A stretch of 64,000 nt of DNA from Bacteroidota bacterium (GCA_016714005.1 JADJOA010000005.1:35027-99026); one strand, 5' to 3'; shown: positions 9,237 through 54,609, numbered from the stretch's first letter. Numbers and translations are program-made. The notes: a model not told the origin generated them from the letters alone.

Positions 9237-9385
9237 AATTCAAAGCAATTAAGTACGAAGAACAATTGTAAATCATAAAGTCTTTTGCCAAAAAGTGTTA
9301 TTTGAAAATCTCTGAATCTTCAGCCGAATAAGTAATCTTATATTAGTTAATAATATTTAAAAATCCTGATAAACCTTCAGATGCT

Positions 9386-11296: not shown

Positions 11297-11758
11297 ATGT
11301 TAATGAAAAAGAAACACGTATTTGAGAAATTGGCGCATAGGGCAACAGAGTTTAGCGGATCAACTTTAGCCTTTATGCTAGCATTAGTTACAATATTAAT
11401 TTGGCTTATTACCGGACCGTATTTTAAGTATAGCGATACCTGGCAGTTGGTAATTAATACAGGCACCACCATTGTTACGTTTTTAATGGTATTTTTAATA
11501 CAGCGAATGCAAAACAAAGATTCTCAGGCAATACATCTTAAATTAAATGAATTGGTGGCTGCATTAGACGGACCAAGCAACAGACTTATAGATGTAGAGG
11601 AAATTTCAGAGGAAGAATTGAAAATTTTAAGTAGCTATTACCAGAAACTTGCTGAAATGGCAAAGAAAGAAAAAAAACTTTCAGTATCTCATTCAATTGA
11701 AGAAGCAATGGAACTACACGAAGAAAAGTATTCGAGAACGAAGCAAAAAAGCAAGTAA
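11297..11758 (+). CDS. Low-affinity iron permease family (small membrane protein)
   Basis: Pattern 'FEKLAHRATEFSGSTLAFMLALVTILIWLITGPYFKYSDTWQLVINTGTTIVTFLMVFLIQRMQNKDSQAIHLKLNELV' matches my recollection of bacterial low-affinity iron permease family (PF04120) members; two TM helices then charged C-terminal tail. Confidence 0.5.
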   Translation: MLMKKKHVFEKLAHRATEFSGSTLAFMLALVTILIWLITGPYFKYSDTWQLVINTGTTIVTFLMVFLIQRMQNKDSQAIHLKLNELVAALDGPSNRLIDVEEISEEELKILSSYYQKLAEMAKKEKKLSVSHSIEEAMELHEEKYSRTKQKSK

Positions 11759-11777
11759 AATATTGAAAGTTTTTTAG

Positions 11778-26224: not shown

Positions 26225-27870
26225 CGTTTTTTTGTGCAGGCTCTTATTGAGTGGCAGCTTATTGCTTTGTTATACTTTTTCATTCTCACAAAATTTAGTG
26301 GTGAATGGAAGTTTTGAAAATGCCATCTGCCCGGTTCCTCCATCAGGTACAGGGCAACTATCGCAAGCCTCAGGCTGGGAAAACCCTTGCAGCAGTGGGA
26401 GCACCGCTCCGGATTTATTCAGCAGATGCTTTGATAATACACTTGCAGGAGGCACTTGTTTAGAGTTAGCGTTCCGGTAAACTTTGCTGCTGGTAACTGT
26501 GCCGCCCGCACAGGTAATAACTATGCCGGAATTATTTGCTACAGGAGCAACAATATGCTTCGAGAGTACATATCTTCCAATCTATCGGTTGCACTTATTG
26601 CCGGAAAAGTTTACAAAGTTGGATTTTATGCAAAGCGTGCGCCTAATTGCAGATATGCAACCAGTGGTTTGGCAGCGTATCTCTCAGCAGGTAAGCCCAA
26701 CCAAAGTGGTAATGGACTTATAATGCAAACCCCTCAAATTAGTTTTGCAACTCAGCTTATTGATACTACACAATGGACATTAATTGAAGGTTACTTTCTT
26801 CCACAGTCTAATCTCAATTATATAACTATCGGTAATTTTAAAAATGATGCTCAGTCTGCCATTCTGGATTTAGGAAGCGCTCCAAATACCGTTTGTCTTG
26901 ATCGTAACTCGTATTATTTTATTGAGGATGTATTTGTTGAGGAAGTAGTAGAAAATCTTTCTATTGATGGTGATACAGTAGTTTGTACAGGTGGGACCAC
27001 AACATTAACCGCATCATCTACCCACCCGTTTTGGTGGAGTACAGCAAGTAACCCTACGGATACATTTAGCCTTCAGCAAAGTATAACAGTAAATCCGTTA
27101 ATAGAACCAGCTTTTATACTTAATGGTTTCTTTCAAAAGAAATCTGTTTCAATAGATGTTATCTCTCCTCCGGCTGTAAATCTGGGTGTTGATACTACCA
27201 TTTGCGAAGGAGAAACACTTCAACTGCACGCAGCAAATATGGGCTGCAATTACGTTTGGTCAACAAATGAAAAGGAGGAATATGTGGAGGTTAAAAATTC
27301 CGGAACTTATTGGGTAGATGTAACAAACCAAGGTTGCACAGTAAGCGATACAGTTAATGTAAATGTTGAATTAGTGCCGGACATTAGTCTTGGTTTAGAT
27401 TCACTTTTTTGTTTAACAGATTACGATTCATTAGTCCTTGATGCAGGAGAAGGCAACAGTTACTTGTGGAGCCCCACCGGAGAAACAACACGTTATAAAA
27501 GCGTTTCAATACCGGGTAATTATTCAGTAACTGTTATTTACTCAAACGGATGCAGCAATGTCGATTCAATTACAGCATTGGAAACATGCCAGCCCAAAAT
27601 ATTTATTCCTAAAGCATTTTCTCCTAACAACGATTTGCTTAACGATAACTTTAAACCTTATGCAACTAATATTTTAGGATTTGAAATGACAATAGTTAAC
27701 CGCTGGGGGCAAACTGTTTTTAATGCAAACGATAAAGCCGGGACGGAAAGTTTAAACAAAAGAATGCACCACAAGGCGTGTATGTTTACCAGATAACCTG
27801 TTACATTATTAATGAGGTAGGCAAACGTGTAGCATTGAACCTAAACGGATGGGTTGCATTAATTGAATAA
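26199..27870 (+). CDS. Second cell-surface protein with gliding-motility-associated (T9SS type B) C-terminal domain, frameshifts near 26470 and 27770
   Basis: Signal peptide (LCRLLLSGSLLLCYTFSFSQ); C-term 'CQPKIFIPKAFSPNNDLLNDNFKPY...NRWGQTVF' then, after a frame change, '...PQGVYVYQITCYIINEVGKRVALNLNGWVALIE*' (canonical end of type-B CTD). Confidence 0.55.
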
Positions 27871-32558: not shown

Positions 32559-32890
32559 AAAGTGTTTGTTTTATGTTGCGAATATAGGTATTAGGCACTA
32601 TGTTTTTAATGCCTTATGTAACACTTATTGTGAGCGAATGGTTGGTTAAAACTCTGTGACGTATAAAACAAAGGCAAGGGCCCTATATATTGATTGATTA
32701 AAGCCTTTATATTATTGTAAAGGTTTTTTTTATATAGTGAGGGCTGAGGATTAGTGCTTACTTTTTGTTTTTCCCATTCGTAAATCGTAAAATTTTCTCG
32801 CGTTTGAATAATAGCGTTTAATGGCTCAATTATATTTTTACTTTTACATAAGCTTCAGAAAATAATTTTTAACACCTTAAACTTAATTAC

Positions 32891-35791: not shown

Positions 35792-35874
35792 TAAAGCAAT
35801 AGATGCATAGCCAGCGCGTTGTTAAAAGTATACCAGAGTTTGATTTTTATAAATAACTGTATTTTTATTCTACA

Positions 35875-36743
35875 ATGTTCAACATCCTTATATCAAAAAA
35901 CTTCGCATGGACTTGCTTTAGACTAGAGCGAGTAAGAACTACGACAAAAAACATTATTGTTTATGCTTTATTTCTGTGCATTTCATGCAACAATGTAAAT
36001 GGGCAAAGCAGCTCACTTTCTGAAGAATATCTTCGGTTAGCAGATGATTTTAAAAAAAGTATGAAACAGGACAGTGCAATAAAATATTATGAAAAAGCAG
36101 CAGTAGAATTTCAAGCCTTGGGAAACGTTGAAAAATTTGTGTACTCATATAACCATATAGGAATTATACTAACAAGGCAGGATAACTATGAAAAGTCAAA
36201 ATTCTATTTGGAGAAAGCGCTCTCAATAGGTCTTTCTTCGCTTGATAGCAACAACCTGGTAATTGCAACCACTTACATTAGCTTAGGAGTAAATTATAAT
36301 GCAGAAGAAAATTACAGCCGGTCATTATTTTATCATAATAAAGCTCTTGCAATACGGCTACTAAAACTGGGGGAATATCATGCTGATGTGGCAACAAGTT
36401 ATGGGAACATAGGAAACGTTTATTTTAATAGTAAGGACTACGAAAAAGCTATTGATGCCCATTTAAAAGCAATGGAAATAAGGGAAAAGCTTTTGGTAAC
36501 ACTGGCGTAGAGGTTATTCAATCTTTTACCAACTTGGGAAACGCTTACAGGGAGAAAAAGAGCTATGAGACATCATTAGCATATTTTGAAAAAGCTTTGC
36601 AGAATAAAGTTAAACAAGTTGGACAAGGGCATAAAGACCTGGTAAAACTTTATAAAAATATAAGTGACGTGTATTACTTAATGAACAACAGAGAGCAAGG
36701 TGATTTTTATAAAATAAAATCAGAGGAGATTTTGAAGAATTGA
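35875..36743 (+). CDS. Tetratricopeptide-repeat protein (TPR_12-like), frameshift near 36510
   Basis: Repeated TPR units (ATTYISLGVNYNAEENYSRSLFYHNKALAIR; ATSYGNIGNVYFNSKDYEKAIDAHLKAMEIREK; FTNLGNAYREKKSYETSLAYFEKALQ). Confidence 0.5.
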
Positions 36744-36782
36744 AATTATTTTGAGGACGAGTGGGATTTTAAAAGTATCTCT

Positions 36783-37166
36783 CTAAGTATTTTTCCCTTT
36801 ATACTTCACAAAAATATTTATCCATATCAACCTTGCCAGCCTAAAAGTAAGTGGCACCAACAAAACAGATGGAACAATAATTCCAAGTAAAAAATACATG
36901 AGGGGAAGGTTATCAGGCGCAAGCACCTCTATGGCTATCCATAGCGTTACCATTAGGGCAACATTAAGTGCATAGCTTACAAACATAGCTCCAAAATAAA
37001 AACCTGTTTCGGGCATAAAGCTGCCTTTGCAAACACTGCAATTGTTTTCCATTTTATCGAACTGACGCAGGTTAAACGGGTTAGAAGAGTTAAAAAAATG
37101 CCCCTCATGGCAATGCGGGCATTTATTATTTAGTATGCTGTATAGCTTTGAACCTTTACCTATCAT
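36783..37166 (-). CDS. DUF983-like zinc-ribbon membrane protein
   Basis: Two CxxC pairs (CPHCHEG ... CSVCKG) followed by two TM helices; size 127 aa, typical of DUF983. Confidence 0.45.
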   Translation of the reverse strand: MIGKGSKLYSILNNKCPHCHEGHFFNSSNPFNLRQFDKMENNCSVCKGSFMPETGFYFGAMFVSYALNVALMVTLWIAIEVLAPDNLPLMYFLLGIIVPSVLLVPLTFRLARLIWINIFVKYKGKNT

Positions 37167-37287: not shown

Positions 37288-38088
37288 GTGAATTCAAAAA
37301 TCAATAAATCTTTTCTGGCAGAGATGCTTGAAGAAAGTTACTTCAAATACAACAACAAAAAATTTATTGCCGATGACCCCATTTCTATTCCCCACGGGTT
37401 TACGCAGAAGGAAGATATAGAAATAAGCGCATTTTTAGCAGCAGCAATTGCATGGGGGCAGCGTAAAACAATACTGGTTAATGCAGGTAAGTTGATGCGT
37501 TACATGGATAATGCACCTTACGATTTTGTTATAAACAGCACAGCAACCGATTTATTACACTTTAAAAAATTTGTGCATCGCACTTTTAATGGCGATGATT
37601 GTGTACACTTTGTTAAGGCGCTTAAAAAAATATACCTGCACCATGCGGGATTAGAAGCTGTGATAAAAAATGCTATGCAAGTTAATGATCATAACCTTGT
37701 GAATGGAATAAGCGGATTGCGCGAAATATTTTTTGCATTAAAGCATTTGCCACGTACACAAAAACATTTTGCCAACCCGCTTAAAAATTCATCGTGCAAA
37801 AGAATTAATATGTTTTTGAGATGGATGATAAGAAAAGATAAAGCCGGTGTTGATTTTGGTTTATGGAATATTTCACCGGCATTGCTTCTTTGCCCTTTAG
37901 ACGTGCACACGGGCAGAATAGCACGCGAACTTGGTTTACTGAACAGAGCGCAGGATGATTTAAAAGCGGTAATTGAACTTACCAATGCGCTAAAGGAATT
38001 TGACAAAACCGATCCTGTGAAATACGACTTTGCTTTGTTTGGTTTGGGAATTGATAAAAAAGCGGGACAATTACTCAGCAAGTTTTAA
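37288..38088 (+). CDS. Conserved hypothetical protein (266 aa)
   Basis: Intact ORF with good codon usage; possibly the Bacteroidota TIGR02757/DUF2400 family (my recollection only). Confidence 0.3.
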   Translation: MNSKINKSFLAEMLEESYFKYNNKKFIADDPISIPHGFTQKEDIEISAFLAAAIAWGQRKTILVNAGKLMRYMDNAPYDFVINSTATDLLHFKKFVHRTFNGDDCVHFVKALKKIYLHHAGLEAVIKNAMQVNDHNLVNGISGLREIFFALKHLPRTQKHFANPLKNSSCKRINMFLRWMIRKDKAGVDFGLWNISPALLLCPLDVHTGRIARELGLLNRAQDDLKAVIELTNALKEFDKTDPVKYDFALFGLGIDKKAGQLLSKF

Positions 38089-38904
38089 AATATTTATTTG
38101 CATAGGGTTTGCCAGGAAAAGTTTTTTGTTTGAAAATTTTAGCCCGTAGCATTCAGCAGGAATGACTGTGCTTAATGATGATGCTTCGTTGTTTTTAATT
38201 CCGTACAGTTTAATTGCGGCATTTTCCAGAGAAATAATTGCTTCGGAGTTTATGCCAAAATCCAATGGCGCATGGGCTTGTATGCTCTTAAAATAGTTGC
38301 CTGCTACATCAAAAATTAAAAACTTATTGTTATCGGTAAGTAATACAAGCCACTTTTCGGTTTCGTACATTTTTTTTATAGCAGAAAAATCTGGTACTGT
38401 TAAATTAATGGGCTGACTTTGCGATTGAGGTTGCAACTGATCATTGTAACTGGTAAGCACTGTTGTCGCCTGATCGTAAACCCAAAAACTGGCGGTGGAT
38501 GAGTTGCATACCAGTAACGGGTTTCCACCTATGGCTTCTCTCAATTTAACAGCACTTTGCATGGCAAGCTGCGAATCGAAAAAATAAACAGTAGCAAAAA
38601 CGGATGAGTACGCTATAATTCGCAACGGGTTGTTTGCATCAATAAAATCAATAAGCCGGCCTTTATCTTGGTAAACGTTAAGCAGTTTGCTGTTTTCATC
38701 GTGCTTGCTTATAACTCCTTTGTGGAGTGCAAAAACGTTACCAAGGTTATCAATGCTGAATTGCTGAGATGCAATGTCTAAATTTTTATAAGGAATAAAC
38801 TGTGCTTTGGTATGTAAAAACAAAACGTTTAGCAAAATAATTAATACTATGTACTTTATTTTTTTAGTAATTATCATCCCATACAAAAATAGAATATCCG
38901 GCAA
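38071..38904 (-). CDS. Hypothetical secreted protein (277 aa)
   Basis: Signal peptide (IKYIVLIILLNVLFLHTKAQ); no recognisable domain. Confidence 0.3.
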   Translation of the reverse strand: MPDILFLYGMIITKKIKYIVLIILLNVLFLHTKAQFIPYKNLDIASQQFSIDNLGNVFALHKGVISKHDENSKLLNVYQDKGRLIDFIDANNPLRIIAYSSVFATVYFFDSQLAMQSAVKLREAIGGNPLLVCNSSTASFWVYDQATTVLTSYNDQLQPQSQSQPINLTVPDFSAIKKMYETEKWLVLLTDNNKFLIFDVAGNYFKSIQAHAPLDFGINSEAIISLENAAIKLYGIKNNEASSLSTVIPAECYGLKFSNKKLFLANPMQINILKLAE

Positions 38905-38956: not shown

Positions 38957-41334
38957 TTATTGCAGCACTACCTTAACTTGCTTGTTAAGGTAAGCGCTCC
39001 TTACCTGTAGCATATAAACTCCTTTTGCATAACCACTCAAATCAAGCACTGATGAATTCAATCCTTGGGAAGTATGAAGAGTATTGATTAAAACCACTTT
39101 GCCTGAAAAATCTGTTAGCGACAGGCTAACGGGCTCAGCGCTTTCCGTCATCAGTTCAATATTTAAAGTGGAGCTTGTAGGGTTAGGGAAAACATTCAGC
39201 CCTTCATTAGAGGCAACAGAAGTATTACCCGCCACCCTGCAAACCGGGGAAGCATTGTAAGTACGAGTACCGTTGCCACAACCATTGGTGGTGATAAGGC
39301 TAACGGTGGCGTTGCCTGTGTTCCAGTCAACTACCAGGTTATTGGTGCCTTGCCCGTTTATGATGGTAGCGGCTGAAGAAGGAATGATACTCCATACAAG
39401 ATTGTAAACTCCTGTAACCCCAGTTAGGTTACCTGAAAGGTAATACCTGCATCGTTATTACACCATACAACCGGGTTGGCGGTAATGGCCCCCGATGTGT
39501 TTGGAGCGCCTTTGGTAGTAATTGTTCTTGGCAAGCTTAACCCGCAACTGTTTTGCGATTGTACGGTTACAGTGCCCGTGGTAAATCCAGATGAAGGGAA
39601 AGTAACGGCAATGGCATTGCTGGCGCTGGTGCCTGTTGCACCTGCTGGCAAAGACCATACATAGCCGGTGGCACCTGCTACGGCAGGGCAACTGTAGTTA
39701 ACTGTTTGTCCGCATACGCCATTGCTGTTACCGCTAATGGCAGCAGGCATTGCAGGCAGCCCTGTGGTAACGCTCTTGCAGCGCTGCACTGTTTGCACCC
39801 CACATACGCTTGTAGCCTTAACGCACAGGTTAGAACTTGTAAAGCCTGTATTAAAGGTAACATTAATGCTGTTGGTTGACGAACTACCCGAAGTAGAACC
39901 TGGCAAAGTCCACTGATAGCTGGCTGCACCTGCTGCAGCAGGCACCGTATAAAGCTGAGTGCTGCCGGGGCATGCAACGGCAGAACCTGCAATGGTGCTT
40001 AAAGCAACAGTAGTGGTGCTGACATTTAAAGTACGTGCAGCGCTGACAAAACAAGCCACATTAGCCGTAACACTTATAGCACCCGTGGTAAACACAGGCG
40101 GCATTTGAATGTTTACGGAAGTAGCCGCAGTGGTAAGCGTGTTTCCACCACCGTTAATGCTTGCACCAGCGGGAGCAGTCCATGTATAATTATCGGCACC
40201 GGTAACCGGAGCAATAGAGTAGGGGTATGATTGAGCAGCACAAGCCACAGTAGTGCCGGTAATGGCAGCGGGCGTGCCAACAGAGCGCCTGATGCTAACG
40301 GCACGGTATAAAGAACTGCCACAGGCATTGGCAGCCGTAACGCGAATGTTATACGTACTGTTGGTGGTAGTGCCAATGTCAATAACCTGGGTGTTGGTAG
40401 TAGAAACCGGATTAAATGTAATGCCATTACTGCCCGGAGCATTAGCCCAGGTGTAAGAGGTTACATTGGCATTTGGAGTTACAGAAAGAGAAACACCATT
40501 TAACGGAGGACAAACACTAGGAGGAGCGCCACTAACAACCGATGGCTGCAACGGCAGGGTAGTGCGCACAGTAACAGCCAGCGGACTAGGTGCTGACTGG
40601 CACCCGCCCACAGCCGTGGTGGTTACCAGATTAAGGGTAACGGTGCCAGTTGTTTTATCATTATTGCCGGGAGTGTAAACCGCATTGGCAATGTTGGCAT
40701 TGTTAAATGTACCATCACCTGAAGTTGACCAGGTATAGCTGCTGCCACCAACCGATGTACCATTAAGGAATACAGGATTGGGTGCGCATATTTCTTGTGC
40801 TGCACCTGCTATGGCAGTGGGTGTTTCCACAATTTGAATATTAGTTCCATTGTCTGTTCCTACCTTGTTAGGCGCGCTTGCCACTACACGTATGCGGTAG
40901 CCGTTGCCTGCGGTGGTGTTGGCAGGTATGGTAACGCTTATGTTGCTGTTAGAAGCATTACCAGCCAGTGTGCCAATGGTATCGGGCGAGGCAAAGCTGC
41001 CTGTGGCATCGCTTAACTCGGCAGTAAAGGTGTTGCCACCTCCTATATCTATAGCTGTATAGGGCAGGCTAAAGGTGCTGCCTGCACATATTGCTGCAGC
41101 TACCGTGCCGGTGCGTATTTGCTCGCCCGGTTGCTGGAAGCCCTGGGTGATGATGTTACCTCCTGCGCTAAGCGAAGGAATAACGGTTTCGCCAATAGTA
41201 AAGGTTACCATGCTGCTGCCACCAGTGAGGGTGCCTCCGGCTGTGGAGATTGCCTTGCGGCTGATGGATTGCGAATTGGCAATTGGCAATTGACTATTGG
41301 CAATGAGCAATGCTATGATTAGTTTTTTTGTCAT
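38957..41334 (-). CDS. Thr/Ala/Gly-rich cell-surface protein with PKD-like repeats and T9SS C-terminal sorting domain, frameshift near 39300
   Basis: Signal peptide; N-term '...TIGETVIPSLSAGGNIITQGFQQP'; repeated Cys-containing Ig/PKD-like modules; final ORF 38957-39235 = T9SS CTD (VFPNPTSSTLNIEL...LTDFSGKVV...AKGVYMLQVRS). Locally elevated GC from the Ala/Gly/Thr codon bias. Confidence 0.5.
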
Positions 41335-41523: not shown

Positions 41524-44500
41524 TTACTTTTTGGTTTCTTCTTTTGGTGCATTTTGCTTTGTCCATGCCTCGCGGTATTCAGAAGGAACATCGTTAACAT
41601 TGGGATAAAGGAATTTATCAGTGTAAGCACCGGGTGCTTTCTTCAGGCGTAAGTCTTCGTAACCTTTGCGCTTGGCTACCATGCGGTAGGCAAAGGCAGT
41701 GCCATTGGCTGCTGAAGGTGCATGCACGGTAAAGGTGTTGCCATTCATTTCTATCCACCAGTTGCCCATGTTGCCGTAAGGAGTAATAAAGGCATGCATA
41801 GGGTGAGTGGCATTAATGGTAACGGTTTGTTCATAATCGGCAGCTACGGTAACTGTTGCCACTCCGTTTTGTATGGTGCCTTTGCCAAAGTCTTCAAACC
41901 AGTTTTCTGGCGACTCCTGGCTGTAAAGCTCCTTAGGCCCATCAGGCGTTTTAACGGTGGCAGCCTTGGTGCCTGAGCAGGTAAAGTTACCTGCTGCGTA
42001 AACACCATAAGCATTGGTGCCGCTGGCAGTGCCATAAATTCCAATGTTTGCTGTACCTCCGCCAGCATTACCATAAACCCCATAACGGTTTCCGGAACCG
42101 GCAAGGTAGCAGCGGCATTAACACCCATATAACCACCTACAGCTCCTACTCCATAACCATAAAAGGGTGTGTTGTTGGTTGAGCCATAAACACCATAATA
42201 ATCTGCGCTGGTTATTGTGTTAATACCATTTACAACTCTGCTAGTGTTGCCTGTGACATCTAATTTATTGGAAGGTATATTTGTTCCTATGCCCACATTG
42301 CCTTCTATAATAGCTCCATTGGCAGGTGCTGAAGTGGTGCCGCTGTATGTTGCACCTACTGCCAAGCCGCCTTCAACATCTAATTTGCTGGCAGGTGTGG
42401 TAGTGCCTAAGCCTACATTGCCACCATTGTTATGTATATTGCTTGAGTTTACTATCCATGATGTGCCATTCCAATAAGGCGTGTTGCCTGCTGCTGTGCC
42501 GCTTGTTAATAAACCTGCGGGGCCTGTGGGGCCTGCAGGACCAGTTGCACCTGTGGGGCCTGCAGGACCAGTTGCACCTGTAGGGCCAGCCGGACCTTGT
42601 GGGCCAACTAAGCCTGCTGTTGATTGCCAACTTGCCAAGCCTGCTGCATCCGACATTAAAACCTTGCCTGCACCCTGTGTGCCATCAGTAATCTTTACAG
42701 TACCTATTACATCTAACTTAGCAGCAGGGGTAGTAGTACCTAAGCTAAGATTACCATTAAAATCTATTTGAGCCTTGGGAGTTGCAAAATTGGCACCTGT
42801 GTAAAACCTTAAATAGTCGCTTCCATAGGTACCTCCAACAATTGCCTGGCCGGGCGTACCTGGCCGCAAACGTAAGCGATACATCATTTGCAGCCGGAAA
42901 CACTGCAGTAGTATTACTATTGGTTAATGATAAACCTGTGCGGCTCATAATAGCAGCACCTGAAACTGCATTCACTTCTGTTTCTAATTTAGCATCCGGG
43001 CTAAGAGTACCTATACCCACGTTTCCATTTCCATGTACACGCATTTTAGTATTAGACACGGCATTGCCTGCAACCCTAAAGTCAATATAAGCATTTGCGC
43101 CATATACATTGGCTAAATAAACTCCATTGTCTGAGGTAATTTCGCCCAGTTTACCCATTTTATAGCTTTGGCTGCCAAAAGAAATGGCATCGCCATCTCC
43201 GGCTGCATCTGCGCGGCTTACATCCAATTTGGTACCCGGTGATGTTGTTCCAATACCCACGTTTCCGCCATTGTTAAATATATTGCTTGAGTTTGTTATC
43301 CATGATGTGCCATCCCAATAAGGCGTATTGCCTGCTGCTGTGCCGCTGGCAATGGTGCCACCCGGAGTAACCCATGATGCCAAGCCTGCTGCATCAGATG
43401 TTAACACTTTGCCTGCACCGGGCGCACCACCTGTAATTTTAACCTGCCCTGCTACTTCTAATTTGCTGGTGGGGGCAGATGTGCCAATACCCACATTGCC
43501 GCTATTTGTATTACTAACATTATTTCCTGATGTGCTCATTGAGCTACAATAGCCGTAGTTGCCCTGTTACGGGGTTAAGCGTAATATTTAAAGCACCGCA
43601 TTCCATATTTAACACCTTTAAAGTATTAGTTGGCTGATCATTTACCACATACGCATAATTGCCCAATACAGTAACACACATTGGATCACTACCTGTTGCC
43701 ACCGAGTTTGTTACTGTTGGCGATGCCGGATTGGTAATGTCAATCACCTGCAAAGTACCGCTACTGTTATTTACCACATAAGCCTTATTGCCCGATAGCG
43801 ATACGGATGCCGGACCGTTAGCGGTTGTTACCGTGCCTGCCACTGTTGGCGATGCCGGATTGGTAATGTTAATAACCTGCATAGAATTGCTACCCTGATT
43901 AACCACATACGCATAATTGCCCGATACGGCTACCGATACAGTAGCTGACCCCGTTGTTACCGTGCCCACCACTGATGGTGATGCCGGATTACTAATATCA
44001 ATCACCTGCATGCTTCCTGAATAATTTGTCACATAAGCATAATTGCCGCTACTGCTACATTAACTGGGGTACTGTTGGTTGTTACCGTACCTACTATGGT
44101 TGGCGTTGCCGGGTTAGTTATGTTAAGCACTTTCATATTATGGCTAGACTGGTTAACAACGTATGCATAATTGCCCGAAATAGCCACTGAACGAGGAAGA
44201 ATTCCTGTATTTGTGCTGCTAACAAGGCTTGGTGAGGCAGGGTTTGAAATGTTAATTACTTTAAGGTGCCCGACAAAAGTGGTTACATACGCATAATTTC
44301 CCGAAACAGCTATTGAAACAGGTGAAACTAAGCCAGACAAGGAACCTGTAACTGTTGGAGCTGCGGCATTGCTTATGTTTATAACCTGCATAGTCCCTGA
44401 GGAATAATTTACTACATAAGCATATGTGCCTGATACAGCAACGTAGTGTGGACGGTCGTCAGTGCCAACAGAGCCTACAACAGAAAGACAGGATGGTATA

Positions 44501-45202
44501 GGGGTACTTAATATATCAGTGGCTGATAAACTTTTCCAGCTTGCCAAGCCTGTTGCAGAAGATGATAAAACCTTGCCAGCACCCTGTGTGCCATCGGTTA
44601 TTTTTACTGCGCCTGCCACATCAAGCTTAGCGGCAGGGGTTGCAGTGCCCACGCCTACGTTGGTTCCGTTGTTAAACAAAGCATTGTCTGCCACCCATGC
44701 AGTGCCGTTCCAGCGCATGGTGTTGCCGGGGCTGTGCCTGCGGGTAAGTCGGCACTCTTTCCTGCAAACAAAGCATAAGGCACGCTGTTAAGCTGCGTAG
44801 TGCCCATGTCGGTATAGCTTGTGCCTCCGGCAGGGTCCATCTCTACCTGTATAAACTTGGCGCCATTGCCCCAGTTTACTGCGGCAAGGGTTCCTATGCC
44901 TGGTGTGCCTGTGCCTATGTTTATATTAAACAAGCCCAGGGCTGTTGTTGTAGGCGTATGTGTTTCCTGGTACACTATGGTGCCGCCTGCTGTTACATCG
45001 CGTAAGCTTATGCGCAGGCCTATGGCTTGTGTAGGCAGAATTTCGCCACTGGCATTACGCGCCACTCCCGGTAAGGGGATGGCATTGGGCGATGGGCTAT
45101 TGTGGCAAAGCCATTAGCCATAAAGCAAAAACCATAAAGGCTGTTTGCCATTGTCTTAGTACTTGGTACTGATGTCCGGGTACTGTTTTGTGTGTGTTGC
45201 AT
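41524..45202 (-). CDS. Large repetitive surface protein, paralog A: signal peptide, conserved N-domain, LVIVD beta-propeller repeats, tail-fibre-like NVGIGTTxPxxKLDV repeats, collagen-like Gly-X-Y tract, conserved C-terminal domain; fragmented by many frameshifts
   Basis: Seven co-linear minus-strand ORFs. LVIVD repeats: 'VAVSGNYAYVVNQGSNSMQVINITNPASPTVAGTVTT' x ~7 (43544-44718). Collagen tract '[31 protein letters not shown]' (42430-42600). Ends nearly identical at DNA level to paralog B (5' ~44760-45200 vs 49530-49970; 3' 41524-41860 vs 45800-46140). Confidence 0.55.
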
Positions 45203-45253
45203 ATTTGTTTGATATTTAGTTATGGTGTTATTTGTTGTTAGTGTTGCTTTTGC

Positions 45254-45338
45254 TTAATCCCTTAATTACCTCAATCCCTTAATTACCTCAATCACTCAAT
45301 TACCTCAATCCCTCAATTGCCTCAATCCCCCAATTACC
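45254..45338. repeat. 17-nt tandem repeat (ccttaattacctcaatc) x ~4.7 located ~50 nt upstream of paralog A start codon
   Basis: Direct reading: ccttaattacctcaatc / ccttaattacctcaatc / actcaattacctcaatc / cctcaattgcctcaatc / ccccaattacc. Confidence 0.85.
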
Positions 45339-45535
45339 TTTTCTTTTAACGCCACAAAGATGCCGTGCTAAACCGCGCCCGTCAATCGTTCATTCCAATG
45401 AATTGGGTGTGGTGATGGGTGTGGTTTTGTAGTTGATATCAATGAGGGCAGGCGCACAAGCGTTTGTAAAAGCACCATGCAGGCAGGTCCCCTTTAGGGA
45501 TTTGGGGGTTAAACGCAAAGCAGACTTACCGGCAA

Positions 45536-45574
45536 ACCTGCAAACCCGTGAGGTTTTATAAACCTCGCAGGTTG
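45536..45574. repeat. Imperfect palindrome (aaacccgtgaggttt-tat-aaacctcgcaggttt), copy 1 of 2
   Basis: 12-bp stem with one mismatch and one G-U pair; same motif recurs at 45750-45786. Confidence 0.6.
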
Positions 45575-45749
45575 TTTAAAATTAATCCCGGAGGGATGAA
45601 ATTATTGTAGAATAAACAATGATTATGCGCTGAAACCCCGTAGGGGTGGTATGTCATCCCTACAGGATTTTTGTACCGGCTGCTCATCTTGCTGTTCTAA
45701 CATAATTTCATGCCTACGGCATTAGGCACAGGATAGTATTTTATTTGGA

Positions 45750-45786
45750 TTAAACCCGTGAGGTTTTATAAACCTCGCGGGTTTAA
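45750..45786. terminator. Palindromic hairpin (ttaaacccgtgaggttt-tat-aaacctcgcgggtttaa) immediately 3' of paralog B; possible terminator
   Basis: Stem of about 16 bp with one non-Watson-Crick position, 3-nt loop, 12 nt beyond the stop of gene 45798-49970(-); weak U-tract, so terminator function uncertain. Confidence 0.4.
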
Positions 45787-45797
45787 TGGGATGTGGG

Positions 45798-48700
45798 TTA
45801 TTTAGCTGCCGGGCTTTGCTCCATTGGTGCATTTTGCTTTAACCATGCTTCGCGGTATTCAGAAGGAACATCGTTAACATTGGGATAAAGGAATTTATCG
45901 GTGTAAGCACCCGGTGCTTTCTTCAGGCGTAAGTCTTCGTAACCTTTGCGCTTGGCTACCATGCGGTAGTCAAAGGCAGTGCCGTTGGCAGCAGTGGGTG
46001 CATGTACGGTAAAGGTGTTGCCGTTGTACTCAATCCACCAGTTGCCCATGTTGCCATTGGGTGTAATAAATGCATGCATAGGGTGTGTGGCGTTTATGGT
46101 TACGGTTTGTTCATAATCGGGCGCTACGGTAACGGTTGCCACTCCGTTTTGTATAGTGCCTTTGCCAAAGTCTTCAAACCAGTTTTCTGGCGACTCCTGG
46201 CTGTAAAGCTCCTTAGGCCCATCAGGCGTTTTAACGGTGGCAGCCTTGGTGCCTGTGCAGGTAAAGTTACCTGCTGCGTAAACACCATAAGCACCTGTGC
46301 CGCTGGCAGTGCCATAAACCCCATAGTTGTTTGTTGTACCTCCGGTAGCATTACCCAAAACCCCATAACGGCTTCCGGTACCGGCAAGGGTAGCAGCGGC
46401 ATTAACACCAATATATCCACCTAAAGCCCCTACTCCATAACCATAAAAGGGTGTGTTGTTGGTTGAGCCAAAAACACCATAATAATCTGCGCTGGTTATT
46501 GTGTTAATACCATTTACAACTCTGTTAGTGTTGCCTGTTACATCTAATTTATTGGAAGGTGCTGTGGTTCCAATACCCACGTTACCATTTCCATGTACAC
46601 GCATTTTAGTATTAGCCACAGCATTGCCTGCAACCCTAAAATCAATATAAGCATTTGCTCCATATACATTGGCTAAATAAACTCCATTGTCTGAGGTAAT
46701 TTCGCCCAGTTTACCCATTTTATAGCTCTGGCTGCCAAAAGAAATGGCATCGCCATCTCCGGCTGCATCTGCGCGGCTTACATCCAATTTGGTATCCGGT
46801 GATGTTGTTCCAATACCCACATTACCATTTCCTTGAATACGCATTAATTCATTAGAAGTGGTTGCAGATGCAGAGGCATAAAAAATATGGTTCGCTCCAG
46901 TATGTTCTACCTGGTATCGGAGAGCACCACCGTTTATTCCGAATCCATAAAATTGATGTTCGTTATTAGCCGCTTCATACAGAACCACTTTACGGTTTGT
47001 ACTGCATTAGATAATTGAAGTTGTGCATTAGGTGTGGTTGTTCCAATACCACGTTTCCACCATTGTTAAATATATTGCTTGAGTTTACTATCCATGATGT
47101 GCCATTCCAATAAGGCGTGTTGCCTGCCTGCTGCTGCCAAAAGGTTGGGGCCGGCAGGGCCGATAGGTCCTTGTGGGCCTGTGGCTCCAGGTTGCTCCAG
47201 TTGGGCCAGCAGGACCTGTAGCTCCTGTTGGGCCAGTTGGGCGAGTAGGGCCTGTTGCTCCAGTTGCACCAGTAGGTCCTGTGGCACCGGCACCAATCGA
47301 ATGCCATCCAAGGGAAGGGCTATTCATTTTTGTAGTAAAAACTAAATCGTATGCAGATACATTAACATTGTTATAGTAAAAACTTCCACTGGCATAAGGA
47401 TTGGTTGTATAAAGCAGGAATCCAAACGAATTTCCAGTAATTACCTCAAACGTATATGTGGTACCTGCCGTCAAAGCAGGAGGGCTTGTAATAACAAATT
47501 CTTGAAATGAACCAGATGCGCCCGCAACTGCTATTGACTGCGTTGCTAAAATAGCCCCCCGGTACCTACACCACTACGAATGTTCAGAGTTCCAGTTCCA
47601 GCATCGCCATCTCTCTTTAAAGAAATAGAATATAATGTGCCCGTTATATTGGGTACAAAAGATTGCGCGTGGTTACCATTACCATAGGCTGTTCCTCCAG
47701 CAGCACCGCTACTAACATCATTACTTGGTGTGACTCCATTGCCGATAGCTGTTGTATATGCCTGCGTGGTATTGTTTGTGGTGTTGTGAATAACCATGCC
47801 GGGTGTGGCAATAAGCGCATCGCGCTGGGTTTGTGTCATGCGGGGTACTAACACGGCACCGGTGGTGCTGGTTACATCAAGTGCTGCGCTGGTGTTGGGG
47901 CGTGGTGCCTATGCCTATGCGTGTGCCGTTATTATATAAGTTGCTTGAGTTGGTTATCCATGATGTGCCATCCCAATAAGGCGTGTTGCCTGCTGCTGCT
48001 CCACTGGTTAATAAACCTGCAGGGCCTGTTGGGCCTGCAGGACCAGTTGCACCTGTGGGGCCTGCAGGACCAGTTGCACCTGTAGGGCCAGCCGGACCTT
48101 GGCCAACTAAGCCTGCTGTTGATTGCCAACTTGCCAAGCCTGCTGCATCCGACATTAAAACCTTGCCTGCACCCCTGTGTGCCATCAGTAATCTTTACAG
48201 TACCTATTACATCTAACTTAGCAGCAGGGGTAGTAGTACCTAAGCTAAGATTACCATTAAAATCTATTTGAGCCTTGGGAGTTGCAAAATTGGCACCTGT
48301 GTAAAACCTTAAATAGTCGCTTCCATAGGTACCTCCAACAATTGCCTGGCCGGGCGTACCTGGCCGCCCAAACGTAAGCGATACATCATTTGCAGCCGGA
48401 AACACTGCAGTAGTATTACTATTGGTTAATGATAAACCTGTGCGGCTCATAATAGCAGCACCTGAAACTGCATTCACTTCTGTTTCTAATTTAGCATCCG
48501 GGCTAAGAGTACCTATACCCACATTGCCACCATTGTTATGTATATTGCTTGAGTTTACTATCCAGGAAGTGCCATTCCAATAAGGCGTGTTGCCTGCTGC
48601 TGCACCCGGGTTTAAGCCCGATGCGCCTTGTATGCCTTGTATGCCTTGTGCACCCGTTGCACCTGTTGGGCCGGTTGCTCTGTTAAACCAATTGGACCCT

Positions 48701-49970
48701 GAGCACCTGTTGCCCCTGTGGGGCCAGTTGCACCTGTTGCACCTGTTGGGCCGGTAGCTCCGGTTGCACCCGTTGCACCTGTTGCACCGGGAGAACCTAC
48801 ACCTACTGAATACCAGCCAAGGGATGTACCGCCTGTCATTTTAGTTTTAAAATATAAATCAGAGGCAGATTGGATGGCTCCGTTAGCGTATGCATTGCCA
48901 CCGGCATAAGGATTAGCTGTAGAAACTCTGAATCCGAATGAACCTCCTGTAACAACCTCAAAAGTATAAACGTTGCCCGACACCAAAGCAGGAGCGGCTG
49001 TAATAATAAATTCTTGTTCGGTACCCGCAGCAGCAGAAACAGTTATTGACTGTGTAGCTATAATAGCGCCCCCTGTGCCGGCTCCGTTGCGAATGTTCAT
49101 GGTATTAGTGCCACTACCTCCATCAATCAATAAAGTAATAGAGTATAAACTGCCTGTTACCGTGGGAACAAAGGATTGCCCATAAGTTACACCACCCAAG
49201 GTTGAAGTCCCTACCGTTTGGGAAATATTAACCGTAGGTGTGCCGGTGGTGCCCATTGTATAAGCCTGCGTGGTATTGCTGGTGGTGTTGTGTATAACCA
49301 TGCCGGGTGTGGCAACAAGTGCATCGCGCTGGGTTTGTGTCATGCGGGGCAATAACACGGCACCGGTAGTAGATGTTACATCAAGTGCTGCGCTGGTGTT
49401 GGGGCTTGTGGTTCCTATGCCTATGCGGCTTCCGTTGTTAAACAAAGTATTGTCGGCCACCCATGCAGTGCCGTTCCAGCGCATGGTGTTGCCGTTGGCT
49501 GTGCCTGCGGGCAAATCAGAACTCTTGCCTGCAAACAAAGCATAAGGCACGCTGTTAAGCTGCGTAGTGCCCATGTCGGTATAGCTTGTGCCTCCGGCAG
49601 GGTCCATTTCTACTTGTATAAACTTGGCGCCATTGCCCCAGTTTACTGCGGCAAGGGTTCCTATGCCCGGTGTGCCTGTGCCTATGTTTATATTAAACAA
49701 GCCAAGGGCTGTTGTTGTAGGCGTATGTGTTTCCTGGTACACTATGGTGCCGCCTGCTGTTACATCGCGTAAGCTTATGCGCAGGCCTATGGCTTGTGTA
49801 GGCAGAATTTCGCCACTGGCATTACGCGCCACTCCCTGGTAAGGGATGGCATTGGGCGATTGGGCTATTGTGGCAAAAGCCATTAGCCATAAAGCAAAAA
49901 CCATAAAGGCTGTTGCCATTGTCTTAGTACTTGGTACTGATGTACGGGTACTGTTTAGTGTGTGTTGCAT
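45798..49970 (-). CDS. Large repetitive surface protein, paralog B: signal peptide, conserved N-domain, two '[12 protein letters not shown]' modules each followed by a collagen-like (GATGPT)n tract, tail-fibre-like NVGIGTTxPxxKLDV repeats, conserved C-terminal domain; fragmented by frameshifts
   Basis: 48612-49970(-) N-terminal 452 aa incl. '[31 protein letters not shown]'; 47546-47854 and 47088-47474 form a second copy of the module; 45798-46988 holds the tail-fibre-like repeats and C-terminal domain (…[36 protein letters not shown]…) almost identical to 41524-41862. Confidence 0.55.
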
Positions 49971-50020
49971 ATTTGTTTGATGTTTAGTTATGGTGTTATT
50001 TGTTGTTAGTGTTGCTTTTA

Positions 50021-50056
50021 CTTAATCACTTAATTACCTCAATCCCCCAATTACCT
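50021..50056. repeat. Same 17-nt repeat family upstream of paralog B, only ~1.7 copies
   Basis: cttaatc acttaattacctcaatc ccccaattacc, followed (50057-50160) by a leader that is near-identical to 45340-45420. Confidence 0.8.
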
Positions 50057-50160
50057 TTTCTTTTAACGCCACAAAGATGCCGTGCTAAACCGCGCCCGTC
50101 AATCGTTCATTCCAATGAATTGGTGTGGTGATGGGTGTGGTTTTGTAGTTGATATCAATG

Positions 50161-50520
50161 ATGTAAGGGCAGATTCCTCACTGCGTTCGGAGTGACAAAC
50201 CTATTTGCTCTTAGAGATTCCTCACTGCGTTCGGAATGACAGTTGGTTGGTTTTATAAAGACTGAAATGGGAAAAGGAAGGGCGCGCTTTGCGCGCCCTT
50301 CCTTTTCCCATTTCAGTCACACGCCAGCTCAGCCCCTGTCATTCCGAACCCGCTTTTCGCGGGTGAGGAATCTCTCATTTCACAAGCATCGCACTGTCAT
50401 TCCGAAACGTAGTGAAGAATCTTTTCTTCCATGCAGTACATTGCAGTGTCATTCCGAGTGAAACGAGGAATCTACTCTTTAGCTTCACCAACATTAACAG
50501 ATTCCTCACTGCGTTAGTAA
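50161..50520. repeat. Cluster of 26-nt palindromic repeat units (gattcctcactgcgttcggaatgaca and its reverse complement) around a 27-bp-stem perfect palindrome; MITE/REP-like
   Basis: Forward units at 50172-50197 and 50215-50240; perfect palindrome 50263-50319 (ctgaaatgggaaaaggaagggcgcgc-tttg-gcgcgcccttccttttcccatttcag); inverted units at 50337-50372, 50395-50422 and 50447-50472; partial forward unit 50501-50516. Each unit conserves an ATTCC...GGAAT stem with a variable loop. Confidence 0.7.
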
Positions 50521-51461: not shown

Positions 51462-54400
51462 ATGAAGCACCTCTGCTGTTTCCTTTCCTTCCTCATCCTC
51501 TGCCTCAGTACACATGCACAGTACAGCCCCGACTCTGTGCGCATGAACTTTGACAAAATCACCGTTGAAGACGGACTCTCGCAGGGCATGGTGCAATGCA
51601 TCATACAGGACAAAGATGGCTACATGTGGTTTTCAAGCAAGGATGGGCTTAACCGGTACGATGGCTACCACATCACCGTGTTTCGCAACAATCCCGATGA
51701 CCCGCACTCCCTGCCCGATAACTATGTAACCTTTATGCAGCAAGATGATAAAGGCAACTTTTGGATAGGAACCAGTTCAAAAGGCGTTTGCCTGTATGAT
51801 AAACGCAGCGAAAGGTTTTTTCCCATAGCTGCCGTAACCAATGCCCTTCAAAAAACGAAGATATTTATGCACTTAAAGTAGATAATAACAAACTATTAAT
51901 TTCCACCAATAACAGTGCCCATGCCTTTGATGTAAGCCGGCTTAAAGAAGGTAACTTTACCAATGAAAACCTCAGCCGCATCAAACTCCTGTATAACTAT
52001 AATGCATCGCAACCCTTACCATCACGAAAGTATCAACTGGGGCATGGCATTACACAGTTATGGTTAAGTGATAGTTCTTTATGGACTTACTTTCTTGACT
52101 CTGTTTGTATAACCACCTTCAGCAGTTCTTTTACCACGCCTGCATATACTTGTTTACCCGCCACACAACTGGGCACAAACGGAACCGAACGATACAGCAT
52201 TGCGGAATTACCGGGCATAAACAAGGTTACTCTTTTATGCTTAGATAAGCTTATCTTGTATGATACCAAACTGCGTAAGGTTACTTATACTACCGCTATC
52301 ACCAAAAATAATATTGGACAAGGAAGTTGTTTTACCGATAAGCAAAACAGGTTTTATTTTGATACTACCACAGGCAATTATTGTTTTAACCCTGCCACGT
52401 TTGAACTAACTCCTGTTGTAAGTAACATGGGTTCTTTCATTATCGCACTTAATAGCTGCACCGACCGCAGCGGCACCTTGTGGGTTGGCAGCAGCGGGCA
52501 TGGTATTTTTAAATACAACGCCCGCAAGCAATACTTTCGTAACCCGGGCATAGGCAGTTGGTATTATGCACAGGGCAAAACGGGTGAAATACTCATGTTT
52601 GACCCTGATGTTTTCCTGAAACGATTAAACCCTGTTACAGGTAAGGTTATTGGCACTGTTCCTTTTCCTAACAAAAAACCCGATGGCACTCTTTGGAATG
52701 ATGGGAGAGTATTAATAAATGGTATGCAATGCGATAAAGACGGAATAATTTGGATGGAATGCAATGACAAACCAATTTCTGAATATTTGCTTTGGTACAA
52801 TACGGCAAACAAGGCAATAGGCATAAAACAAATAGCTACAGCAGGCAGAGAACAGTATCGTAAATTGTTTATTGATAACAACAACCGCCTTTGGCTTGTT
52901 AAACACAATGCCAACCACAGCCGTAGTTGGATTGAGTTTGATAAAACCACCAAAGAACCTGTAAGAGAATACAAATTCCCAATTGAAAAGATTTAAACAC
53001 ATACCCCTTTGTATCTGATATGTGGCAGGATGCACAAGGTGTGTTTTGGTTTGGCACCATACAGGGCTTGTTTAGTTTTAATGAAAAGAAGAATGAATGG
53101 CATCAATGGAAAAACATTCCAAACAACAATGCTTCCCTTAGCGGGGATATGATATTCTCCCTTTGCCCCGATGCCAAACAACCCGATAAATATTTATGGG
53201 TAGGTACAAACGGTACTGGACTTAACCGTTTTGAGTACGCCACCGGCAAATGCATACGCTACACCGAAGCAGATGGACTGCCCAATAACGTTGTGTACTC
53301 CATGCTTAATGACAATGCAGGCAACTTATGGCTAAGCACTAATAACGGATTAAGTTGCATGCTCTCCGGCAAAGACTTCCGCAACTTTACTACCGATGAT
53401 GGCTTACCCGGCAATGAGTTTAACCGGTTCGAAAAGCTCAAACTAAGTTCGGACGAATTATTGTTTGGGGGTGTGGCAGGCGGCACTATCTTTAATCCTG
53501 CCGAAATACTAAAACAAAACCCTGCACCTAATTTGGTGCTTACCGGGCTATCTATCTACAACAAACCTGCAACCCACACCACCGATAGCACCATTATTCA
53601 AGCACCCATTGGGTATGCAAACACCATCACCCTTCCGCACAACAAAAACATGTTCACGCTGGAGTTTGCAGCATTAGAGTCATCACCTGCCAACAAAAAA
53701 CAATATGCTTACCGGTTATTGGGCTTTGACAACAACTGGATACCCAATGGTGCAAAGAATGCCGCCACCTATACCAACCTGCCTCACGGCAGCTACACCT
53801 TTCAGGTAAAAGGCGCAGGCAGCGATGGTGTTTGGAACGAGCAAGGCGCATCCATCAACATTATCATTCTTCCGGCCTGGTATCAAACGTGGTGGTTTAA
53901 GTTGGCAGTGTTGCTTGCTGTGGCAGGAGGTTTGTATGCACTTTACCGCTACCGCCTCAGGCAGCAACTCAAACTCCTCACCGTGCGCAACCGCATAGCA
54001 GCCGACTTGCACGATGAAATTGGCAGCACCCTCAGCAGCATTGCCCTGTCAAGTACTGTTATCCAAAACAAATTGAATGGCAGCGCCCCCGAAGTAAACA
54101 CACTGCTCAACCAAATTAGCACCAACACCAATAACATGATGGAAGCCATGAGCGACATTGTGTGGACCATCAACACCAAAAACGACAGGTTTGATAACGT
54201 CATCAACCGCATGCGCGCCTTTGCCATCGAGATATTAGAACCTAAGGATTGCCTCGTTCACTTTAATGCTTCCGAACAGCTAAACAACCTTACCCTTGAC
54301 ATGGCGCAGCGCAAGAACCTTTACTTGTTGTTTAAAGAAACCATTAACAATGCTGCCAAGTATTCGCATTGTCAAAACGTGTGGATTGACATTACCATGA

Positions 54401-54609
54401 ACGGAAGCAACAAGCTTATGCTAAAGATTAAAGACGATGGCGTTGGGTTTGCCACACATGCCACTGTAGGTAGCAATGGTAAAAGCGAAGCCTTTGGTGG
54501 CAACGGCTTAGCCAGCATGCGCAAACGCGCCCACGAGTTGGAAGGAACAGTAACCATCAATTCAGAAATAAACAAAGGAACTGAAGTGGTATTAGAGTTT
54601 AAGATTTAA
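51462..54609 (+). CDS. Hybrid-architecture sensor histidine kinase: signal peptide, two-component-regulator beta-propeller repeats, Y_Y_Y domain, TM helix, HisKA_3 + HATPase; broken into >=4 ORFs by frameshifts
   Basis: Propeller repeats ('YMWFSSKDGLNRYDGYHITVF', 'FWIGTSSKGVCLYD', 'LWVGTNGTGLNRFEY', 'LWLSTNNGLSC'); Y_Y_Y-like 'KKQYAYRLLGFDNNWIPNGAKNAATYTNLPHGSYTFQVKG'; TM 'WWFKLAVLLAVAGGLYALY'; H-box 'RIAADLHDEIGSTLSSIAL'; G-boxes 'DDGVGF', 'GNGLASMRKRAHELEG'. Confidence 0.7.

Follow-up and report, generated by a model that had tools for sequence, protein, structure and literature searches.

Which surface structure is encoded by two very long, tandem and frame-broken genes of a Bacteroidota bacterium, and how could its product be held on the cell? 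The two genes, here named A and B, lie on the minus strand of a stretch of 64,000 nucleotides (nt) from assembly GCA_016714005.1 (JADJOA010000005.1:35027-99026), and this whole stretch is referred to as the window. A preliminary description of the DNA had presented them as mosaic surface-fibre paralogs with phage-tail-fibre-like units, and the follow-up analysis supported that view. Taken as a whole, the observations are probably best explained by A and B encoding secreted trimeric surface fibres of the mosaic adhesive trimer (MAT) type.

A conserved N-terminal domain relates the fibres to mosaic adhesive trimers

The preliminary description gave about 3.7 and 4.2 kb for the two tandem minus-strand genes, which agrees with the measured lengths. 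The genes and their N-terminal domains (N-domains) are as follows.

41524-45202, minus strand: fibre gene A, 3.68 kb, ~1227 amino acids (aa) after frame repair (open reading frame (ORF) fragments stitched)
45798-49970, minus strand: fibre gene B, 4.17 kb, ~1391 aa after frame repair (ORF fragments stitched)
49527-49859, minus strand: N-terminal MAT-type base domain of B, found by NCBIfam NF053851 Bdello_MAT_N (E 1e-8 to 9e-11) and by the family hidden Markov model (HMM)
44760-45092, minus strand: N-terminal MAT-type base domain of A, ~97 % DNA identity to that of B, found by the family HMM

Both genes start with a signal peptide and a conserved N-domain, as had been described, and the homologous base domain lies directly after the signal peptide at residues ~36-146 of A and B. 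NF053851 ('mosaic adhesive trimer family chimeric fiber protein') matched the N-domain with E values of 1e-8 to 9e-11 and was also matched by 80 of 81 independent N-domain relatives (best E 1.2e-15). The scores were 35.1 bits for the full protein and 41.8 bits for the N-terminal 181 aa, which does not reach the curated cut-off of 60 bits. Judged from these profile scores, the relationship to the Bdellovibrio proteins is remote and at superfamily level only, and A and B are not to be counted as members of the Bdellovibrio subfamily.

MAT proteins are defined by a signal peptide, a conserved β-rich N-domain of ~130 aa, a long trimeric fibre and an exchangeable S74 or non-S74 tip (Caulton et al. 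2024, Nat Microbiol, PMC10769870). Their capping-loop consensus is V-G-G/N-π-x-x-P-x-x-x-L, with NVGIGATAPTAKLE in Bd2133 and NVGIGATSPSAKLQ in Bd0884 as published examples (PMC10769870). The motif NVGIGTTxPxxKL of the window agrees with this consensus and occurs in six copies in A and in four copies plus two variants in B; the repeated tail-fibre-like units noted earlier are this MAT capping-loop motif. Tips vary as well: A and B end in a β-sandwich, the syntenic allele of sister strains in Peptidase_S74 (45 bits against a threshold of 22 bits), and short members among the N-domain relatives in Lcl_C, C1q, H_lectin, S74, Fib_succ_major or Gly_rich domains. The domain combination had not been recognised as a described system in Bacteroidota. 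That statement did not hold, as the fibres belong to the MAT superfamily and Supplementary Table S3 of the MAT study already lists proteins of the FCB group (Bacteroidota), one of them collagen-like from a Saprospiraceae metagenome-assembled genome (MAG) (PMC10769870). The system is thus described, though barely explored outside Bdellovibrio.

The distribution of the family was surveyed by a pattern scan of one genome per bacterial or archaeal species, and the best 80 of the more than 587 N-domain stretches confirmed in these species-representative genomes were looked at closely. These 80 belong to Chitinophagales, Flavobacteriales, Saprospiraceae, Cytophagales and Sphingobacteriales, with cultured species such as Taibaiella koreensis (THG-DT86), Cnuella takakiae (RG1-1) and Mesonia profundi (MT50) among the carriers. 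In those loci, the N-domain was always N-terminal, protein sizes ranged from ~150 to ~2000 aa, and arrays of 2-9 paralogs were frequent. Full-length relatives were drawn from the genome loci and a representative search; the homolog search gave proteins of at most ~1.7 times the query length, and with the profile of the QG domain (described below) short fragments only.

One relative deserves separate mention. In P0002, a 308-aa protein of an ENA metagenome fragment, the mature N-domain is the same as in A and B over 112 aa (100 % identity), the signal peptide differs, and the stalk is unlike theirs and carries a YadA-like 'NTAIG' repeat. This comparison suggests that the N-domain may be homogenised, or exchanged as a block, among paralogs of one population.

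Binding modules, collagen tracts and tips

Promoter, signal peptide, N-domain and C-terminal tip are common to A and B (a common C-terminal domain had been noted before), and the cores are unlike. In A, the order is signal peptide, N-domain, seven-blade LVIVD propeller, stalk, module X, block Y with collagen, YG-repeat neck and β-sandwich tip. The first half of B consists of signal peptide, N-domain, lectin-like module 1, collagen, block Y and collagen, and its second half of lectin-like module 2, collagen, stalk, module X, YG-repeat neck and β-sandwich tip.

43562-44430, minus strand: seven LVIVD β-propeller blades, in A only (PF08309; TRF period 129 nt = 43 aa)
48795-49355, minus strand: QRDAL lectin-like jelly-roll module 1 of B (AlphaFold model, Foldseek matches)
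47286-47851, minus strand: QRDAL lectin-like jelly-roll module 2 of B, 72-91 % DNA identity to module 1
48610-48797, minus strand: collagen-like Gly-X-Y tract of B with 21 triplets
48015-48098 and 47147-47288, minus strand: other collagen tracts of B
42513-42596, minus strand: collagen tract of A
41527-41991 (A) and 45801-46271 (B), minus strand: tip proper

PF08309 was found in two fragments of A with 80.2 and 101.5 bits (threshold 20.2; E 6.6e-23 and 1.5e-29), and the LVIVD repeats of A, put at about seven in the preliminary description, were counted as exactly seven. The duplicated QRDAL/collagen module reported for B is present. A '…PGMVIHNTT' module, assigned to both genes, was found only in B, where it occurs twice. 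The AlphaFold model of the QRDAL unit (pLDDT 91) is a jelly-roll β-sandwich, which Foldseek aligned best with tail-tip and baseplate proteins of phages (Bxb1, phi812, Douge), with the Cwp84 lectin-like domain and with CBM6/35. The unit has 1066 representative homologs, and 61 of the best 150 also carry the N-domain, where it is often the terminal tip.

Gly-X-Y tracts had been seen in both genes and were confirmed, with 12 triplets in A and 21, 10, 5 and 10 in B; uninterrupted runs of 10-21 triplets can be read directly in the sequence. The window fragments scored 19.9-24.9 bits with the collagen model PF01391 (gathering threshold 27.2) and the intact sister protein 41.7 bits, and the scores under the threshold are attributed to short tracts and broken frames. 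Apart from LVIVD in A and, weakly, collagen, Pfam recognised nothing in A and B. A PDB sequence search with the whole protein returned collagen-type matches only, and a PDB profile search with the N-domain nothing meaningful. The β-sandwich tip of A and B resembles C-terminal domains of phage tailspikes and fibres.

In locus L062 (MAG Bacteroidota SSA2, CP058707.1), positions 4915-9278 hold an N-domain gene with LVIVD blades, fragmented by frameshifts, followed by an N-domain fibre gene and a QG gene (described below). The window is therefore not the only place where propeller and fibre are combined.

Blocks are exchanged at capping-loop motifs

The shared and rearranged blocks were located as follows.

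41527-42302 in A = 45824-46586 in B, minus strand: shared 3' block, 91.5 %, YGVYG-repeat neck and β-sandwich tip
43006-43266 in A = 46566-46826 in B (96 %) = 8610-8872 in sister contig L086 (96.6 %), minus strand: module X, with a GNVGIGT-coding motif on both flanks
42424-43027 in A = 47926-48529 in B, minus strand: block Y, 96 % overall with 355 nt at 99-100 %, position differing between the genes
45203-45452 for A = 49971-50168 for B, minus strand: duplicated upstream region (promoter and 5' untranslated region (5'-UTR))

Near-identical 5' and 3' ends of roughly 440 and 340 nt with differing middles had been reported. The shared ends are real but longer: the 5' block spans 814 alignment columns (~250 nt upstream and ~555 nt coding) and is ~97 % identical with a 51-nt repeat indel set aside, and the shared 3' end covers 763 nt at 91.5 % identity. 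The cores do diverge, but two internal blocks are common to both genes in a different order, X with 260 nt (96 %) and Y with 607 nt (96 %). Chance cannot account for so close a resemblance between A and B, which share blocks that are identical over hundreds of bases.

Sister strains carry a single intact gene of 1006 aa at the same position, between a GIY-YIG gene and a PKD_6/T9SS gene (T9SS, type IX secretion system). Its promoter and N-domain are as in the window and are followed by a diverged QRDAL unit, a collagen tract of greater length, module X and a Peptidase_S74 tip that has no counterpart in the window. Across A, B and the sister gene, module X is 94-97 % identical, and all three genes differ completely beyond its borders; in all three genes, the identity starts in the GTGGGTATTGGAAC (…NVGIGT) motif and stops at the same motif on the other side. 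The block borders at capping-loop DNA, together with the S74-tip allele of the sister strains, demonstrate cassette recombination, with crossovers at short repeated capping-loop motifs and not only in the conserved termini. The earlier proposal that conserved ends and swappable cassettes allow recombination is borne out by the module X borders and the S74 allele.

Upstream of A, between the shared upstream region and the start of the gene, a 17-nt tandem repeat, AATCCCTCAATTACCTC on the plus strand, is present in 4.9 copies (45256-45339), and its counterpart upstream of B (50000-50060) has three units (51 nt) fewer. This copy-number difference in an otherwise ~97 % identical promoter/5'-UTR could alter the expression of the two paralogs. 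A scan for sigma-70 promoters and terminators, with a model that does not cover Bacteroidota promoters, gave counts equal to shuffled expectation.

A gene for a T9SS-sorted candidate partner accompanies the fibre genes

The gene that follows A on the same strand, beginning ~190 nt downstream, has the following parts.

38957-41334, minus strand: partner gene with a signal peptide, a ~50-aa QG domain, PKD_6 repeats and a T9SS type A sorting domain
41125-41280, minus strand: QG domain of the partner (QG HMM, E 9e-22; domain ends LTQGFQQP)
38960-39193, minus strand: T9SS type A sorting domain of the partner (Por_Secre_tail, 9e-14; PKD_6 of the partner, 2e-46)

In the window, the gene is split by a 1-nt homopolymer deletion near 39435, and in sister strains it is an intact ORF of 792 aa. 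The QG domain had no match in Pfam, NCBIfam or PDB, and a profile comparison of the QG domain with the N-domain gave no relation.

The association was surveyed with the QG HMM over 82 external loci with N-domain fibres, and unrelated ORFs there with a T9SS C-terminal domain (CTD) served as control. All 59 QG ORFs found were on the fibre strand, and 57 of the 59 had a fibre gene no more than 400 bp away, as a rule with an overlap or a gap of at most 50 bp; by comparison, 3 of 26 unrelated CTD-bearing ORFs adjoined a fibre gene. The QG ORF stood upstream of the fibre in 43 cases and downstream in 16. A recognisable T9SS CTD was present in 44 of the 59, most of which are only 150-180 aa long and consist of the QG domain and the sorting signal, and 8 of 10 small partners carried Por_Secre_tail or TIGR04183 type A domains. 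The coupling spans orders of Bacteroidota, whatever the length or tip of the fibre. Mesonia profundi has two consecutive partner-fibre pairs, locus L001 an array of at least seven fibres with one shared partner, and three further loci have divergent small CTD proteins in the partner position. Minimal pairs are seen in Mesonia profundi (locus L072, 1383-1925 and 1941-4589) and in Taibaiella koreensis (locus L063). Fibre genes are thus tightly coupled genetically to a T9SS type A cargo gene, and the QG protein is a candidate anchor or export partner of the fibre, a role for which we see roughly balanced prospects from the sequence comparisons. Among the papers available for searching, none contained the QG motif strings or linked MAT fibres to T9SS.

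The fibres themselves had been set apart from standard T9SS cargo. This is correct in so far as no T9SS CTD was found in A or B with the Pfam and NCBIfam models Por_Secre_tail, TIGR04183 and CHU_C, nor in any of 114 family fibre ORFs with the CTD HMMs; the system is nevertheless probably not outside T9SS, the adjacent QG gene being type A cargo.

The QG partners (189-212 aa) at 10599-11165 of locus L005 and at 11746-12381 and 15954-16538 of L006 have no sorting domain recognisable with Pfam or NCBIfam. They carry either another C-terminal signal or a sorting domain diverged past detection.

Frameshifts arise from homopolymer errors in the assembly

No single open frame covers either fibre gene, with at least six frame changes in A and at least seven in B. 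Where A and B are nearly identical, all indels of 1-2 nt between them alter the length of a homopolymer, such as GGG versus G or GGGG versus GGG. The window proteins are identical to the NCBI 'Bacteroidetes bacterium' MAG proteins MBK7854795-97 (IPJ79_07680-90), and we take the window to be a long-read metagenome assembly, given the names of related MAGs, 'tig' labels typical of long-read wastewater assemblies and general knowledge. For comparison, six short-read contigs from assemblies and metagenomes (L086-L091) were used, whose flanks match the window at 96.5-98.7 % identity. In the flanks, the window differs from the sister assembly by 17 single-base indels; homopolymers account for 14, and three or more of the indels fall where the window splits a histidine-kinase gene (1022 aa in the sister) and the PKD_6 gene. 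The homopolymer-only indels and the intact genes of the short-read sisters show that the organism itself has intact copies of A and B and that the frameshifts are homopolymer errors of the assembly.

Other split or truncated genes of the window are a histidine kinase with Reg_prop/Y_Y_Y at 51462-54609 (plus strand), the PKD_6/T9SS gene at 39435, a run of small ORFs at 11778-14860 (minus strand) and a BipA gene without its N-terminus at 5834-7387 (plus strand). Since the indels examined against the sisters were single-base and mostly homopolymeric, ORF-based annotation of this contig is unreliable.

Proposed architecture and surface display

In the architecture that we propose, a Sec signal peptide is followed by a conserved base domain of ~110-130 aa and then by a long stalk, built of collagen triple-helix tracts and of β-rich segments punctuated by capping-loop motifs. 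Globular, putatively binding modules are threaded into the stalk, the LVIVD propeller in that of A and the two lectin-like jelly rolls in that of B, and a shared β-sandwich tip ends both fibres. Collagen Gly-X-Y tracts imply trimers, and on this ground and by the MAT precedent the fibres would be trimeric. The propeller, the lectin-like modules and the β-sandwich tip are predicted to bind ligands, most likely glycans, and by analogy the fibres are most likely surface adhesins for glycans or other ligands. New fibres arise by homologous recombination between paralogs or alleles, with capping-loop DNA as the crossover site.

For display, the QG protein would be exported and surface-attached by T9SS and would then dock or co-export the fibre via its conserved N-domain. 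That the fibres reach the surface through this T9SS-sorted partner may be true with about as much reason as not. The more specific proposal of a two-component display in Bacteroidota, in which a small QG plus type A protein is exported by T9SS and docks or piggybacks a Sec-only fibre trimer, is put forward tentatively.

Weighing of alternative explanations

That A and B are decaying pseudogenes, with real frameshifts inactivating the surface proteins, is very improbable. Their 13 or more frame changes in 8.4 kb are denser than in several long intact ORFs of the window, but the higher error density is explained by the abundance of G/C homopolymers in sequence that codes for Gly, Pro and Ala. 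Beyond the homopolymer nature of the A/B indels, neither in-frame stop codons nor point-mutation decay were seen within the frames, indels of this kind also break flanking housekeeping and sensor genes whose counterparts in the sister short-read assemblies are whole, and a 348-aa protein of another metagenome equals the C-terminal part of B but for one residue; the pseudogene reading was rejected on the homopolymer pattern and the intact sister ORFs. The tandem pair might instead be an artefact in which a long-read assembler concatenated two strain alleles of a one-gene locus, as could be argued from the single fibre gene of the sister strains, from the identical promoter regions taken in by the duplicated unit and from the error-prone assembly. 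We regard this as quite improbable, for tandem arrays of 2-9 paralogs are common elsewhere in the family, the cultured Mesonia profundi included, the 3' flanks of A and B are distinct, a unique spacer of 350 nt separates the genes, the sister allele equals neither A nor B, and a repeat unit of 8 kb is within normal nanopore read length. A decayed prophage tail-fibre module is hardly credible. PHROGs tail-fibre families were matched, both the tip and the lectin-like module bear a likeness to receptor-binding domains of phages, and the sister allele ends in a Peptidase_S74 chaperone; most PHROG matches, however, fall on collagen tracts. Pfam scans of 20 flanking ORFs found no phage genes in the window, in line with the earlier remark that none are nearby, and the surrounding genes code for aromatic amino-acid biosynthesis, BipA, TonB-dependent receptors, a histidine kinase, glycosyltransferases and T9SS cargo. 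The locus is also chromosomal and syntenic in sister strains, and the N-domain occurs in 3 of 2.9 million viral contigs (IMG/VR) as against more than 587 bacterial-genome stretches; at least two of those three contigs have a small T9SS-CTD gene directly upstream of the fibre, one with a QG domain as well. The prophage reading was rejected on account of the gene content, the synteny and an N-domain that is all but missing from the viral contigs of IMG/VR.

Several observations weigh against MAT-type fibres displayed through a T9SS partner. The N-domain stays below the 60-bit cut-off and aligns to profile positions 3-83 of 162 only; the tandem order of A and B is known from one error-prone assembly; a partner could not be recognised in about 12 of the 68 loci whose flanks were adequate; and the partner in the window is atypically large (792 aa, with PKD_6 repeats). 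Bdellovibrio, moreover, displays MAT fibres without T9SS (PMC10769870), hence a T9SS partner is not a general requirement of the family; as Bdellovibrio has no T9SS, any such partner would be a Bacteroidota solution. On the same precedent, the fibres could be autonomous adhesins with T9SS-independent export and anchoring, and the QG gene co-regulated or parallel to them and not a physical partner. This is a serious alternative that we nonetheless consider rather doubtful. It is favoured, besides the Bdellovibrio case, by the loci where the partner is missing and by the lack of any profile relation between QG domain and N-domain, but it sits poorly with the proximity and common strand of the QG ORFs across Bacteroidota orders and any fibre length or tip, with the many-fibre array of L001 sharing one partner, and with the minimal partner, whose QG domain and sorting signal alone are hard to explain as an independent adhesin.

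Comparison with known systems

The surface fibres proposed here resemble the MAT proteins of Bdellovibrio bacteriovorus (PMC10769870) in the signal peptide followed by a conserved β-rich N-domain with HMM-level homology, in long fibres with the capping-loop motif, in interchangeable S74 and non-S74 (β-sandwich) tips, in having several paralogs per genome and in phage-like modules without a phage. Unlike them, they use collagen tracts in the stalk, hold globular modules (LVIVD propeller, lectin-like jelly rolls) inside the fibre and not only at the tip, belong to a Bacteroidota MAG without evidence of predation, and are coupled to a T9SS-sorted QG-domain gene for which no Bdellovibrio counterpart is described.

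With phage S74 fibres and tailspikes (K1F endosialidase, T5 L-shaped fibre) they share the capping-loop motif and, in the sister allele, the S74 tip. Their own tips are similar to the C-terminal β-sandwiches of phage tailspikes (Pam1, K1 lyase, R2 pyocin fibre), and the lectin-like module to baseplate and tail-tip domains. They differ from phage fibres in carrying a signal peptide and a bacterial N-terminal base domain in place of a virion-attachment domain, and in their chromosomal, syntenic locus without phage genes and an N-domain that viral contigs hardly ever carry.

Collagen-like surface proteins (Scl1/Scl2, Legionella Lcl, Bacillus BclA) likewise have Thr/Ala/Pro-rich Gly-X-Y tracts as trimeric spacers; the fibres gave weak HMM matches to SclB and Lcl, and many relatives end in Lcl_C. 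However, all these scores are far under the family cut-offs, the fibres have no LPXTG anchor, and their tracts are short (5-21 triplets) and form one of several stalk elements. Trimeric autotransporter adhesins of the YadA family are comparable in their modular trimeric stalk with heads, diversified by module shuffling, whereas the fibres lack a C-terminal β-barrel translocator, have their conserved end at the N-terminus and showed no sequence relationship. The T9SS cargo adhesins SprB and RemA, with type A or B CTDs, are also large repetitive surface proteins of Bacteroidota; here it is the neighbouring gene that encodes a true type A CTD protein, while the fibres themselves have no T9SS CTD.

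Other features of the window

The fibre locus has a GC content of 0.47-0.50 versus 0.31-0.42, with 0.48-0.61 at codon position 2 and a GC3 of 0.38-0.43, the latter in the range of other genes. Horizontal transfer, which the high GC might suggest, was rejected, as the excess lies mostly at codon position 2 and comes from the Gly/Ala/Thr/Pro content.

The QG/PKD_6 gene is followed on the same strand by a 277-aa ORF (38071-38904, minus strand) with a signal-peptide-like start and no Pfam match. It is kept in place in all sister contigs (268-277 aa), and a 24 % homolog occurs in one of the 82 other loci, on the opposite strand.

Relative to the sisters (L086 14543-14681), the window has an extra ~4.1 kb at 32666-36793, among whose contents are a gene for T9SS type A cargo of 966 aa (BNR-like, DUF7619, Por_Secre_tail) and an ORF of 211 aa. 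It is a second strain-variable surface-protein insertion near the fibre locus. More T9SS cargo is encoded within the 64 kb at 20865-23216 (PKD and SprB repeats with CHU_C type B), 26456-27796 (CHU_C) and 32891-35791 (type A), and the organism clearly invests heavily in T9SS-displayed surface proteins.

Implications

The fibres are new members of the MAT superfamily, and internal propeller and lectin modules, a collagen stalk and, most of all, a conserved gene for a T9SS-sorted candidate partner make the Bacteroidota form a distinct variant. The superfamily is thereby extended into an abundant wastewater lineage of Bacteroidota and is not a speciality of Bdellovibrio. The locus is a clean natural example of fibre diversification, in which a capping-loop-coding motif marks the exact borders of the exchanged blocks and strains with ~98 % identical flanks differ in both tip and number of fibre genes. 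For annotation, it illustrates how homopolymer errors in long-read MAGs break up Gly/Pro-rich genes of this class into "hypothetical" fragments.

If the proposed partnership is true, the QG protein would be the first candidate for the cell-surface component by which the MAT N-domain is held, and the fibres would be a case of T9SS-dependent display of a protein without a C-terminal sorting domain. The adjacent QG/T9SS-CTD gene is the most useful outcome of the analysis: what holds the N-domain on the cell becomes a directly testable two-gene hypothesis, and the cultured Taibaiella koreensis, Cnuella takakiae and Mesonia profundi carry the fibre and QG pair.

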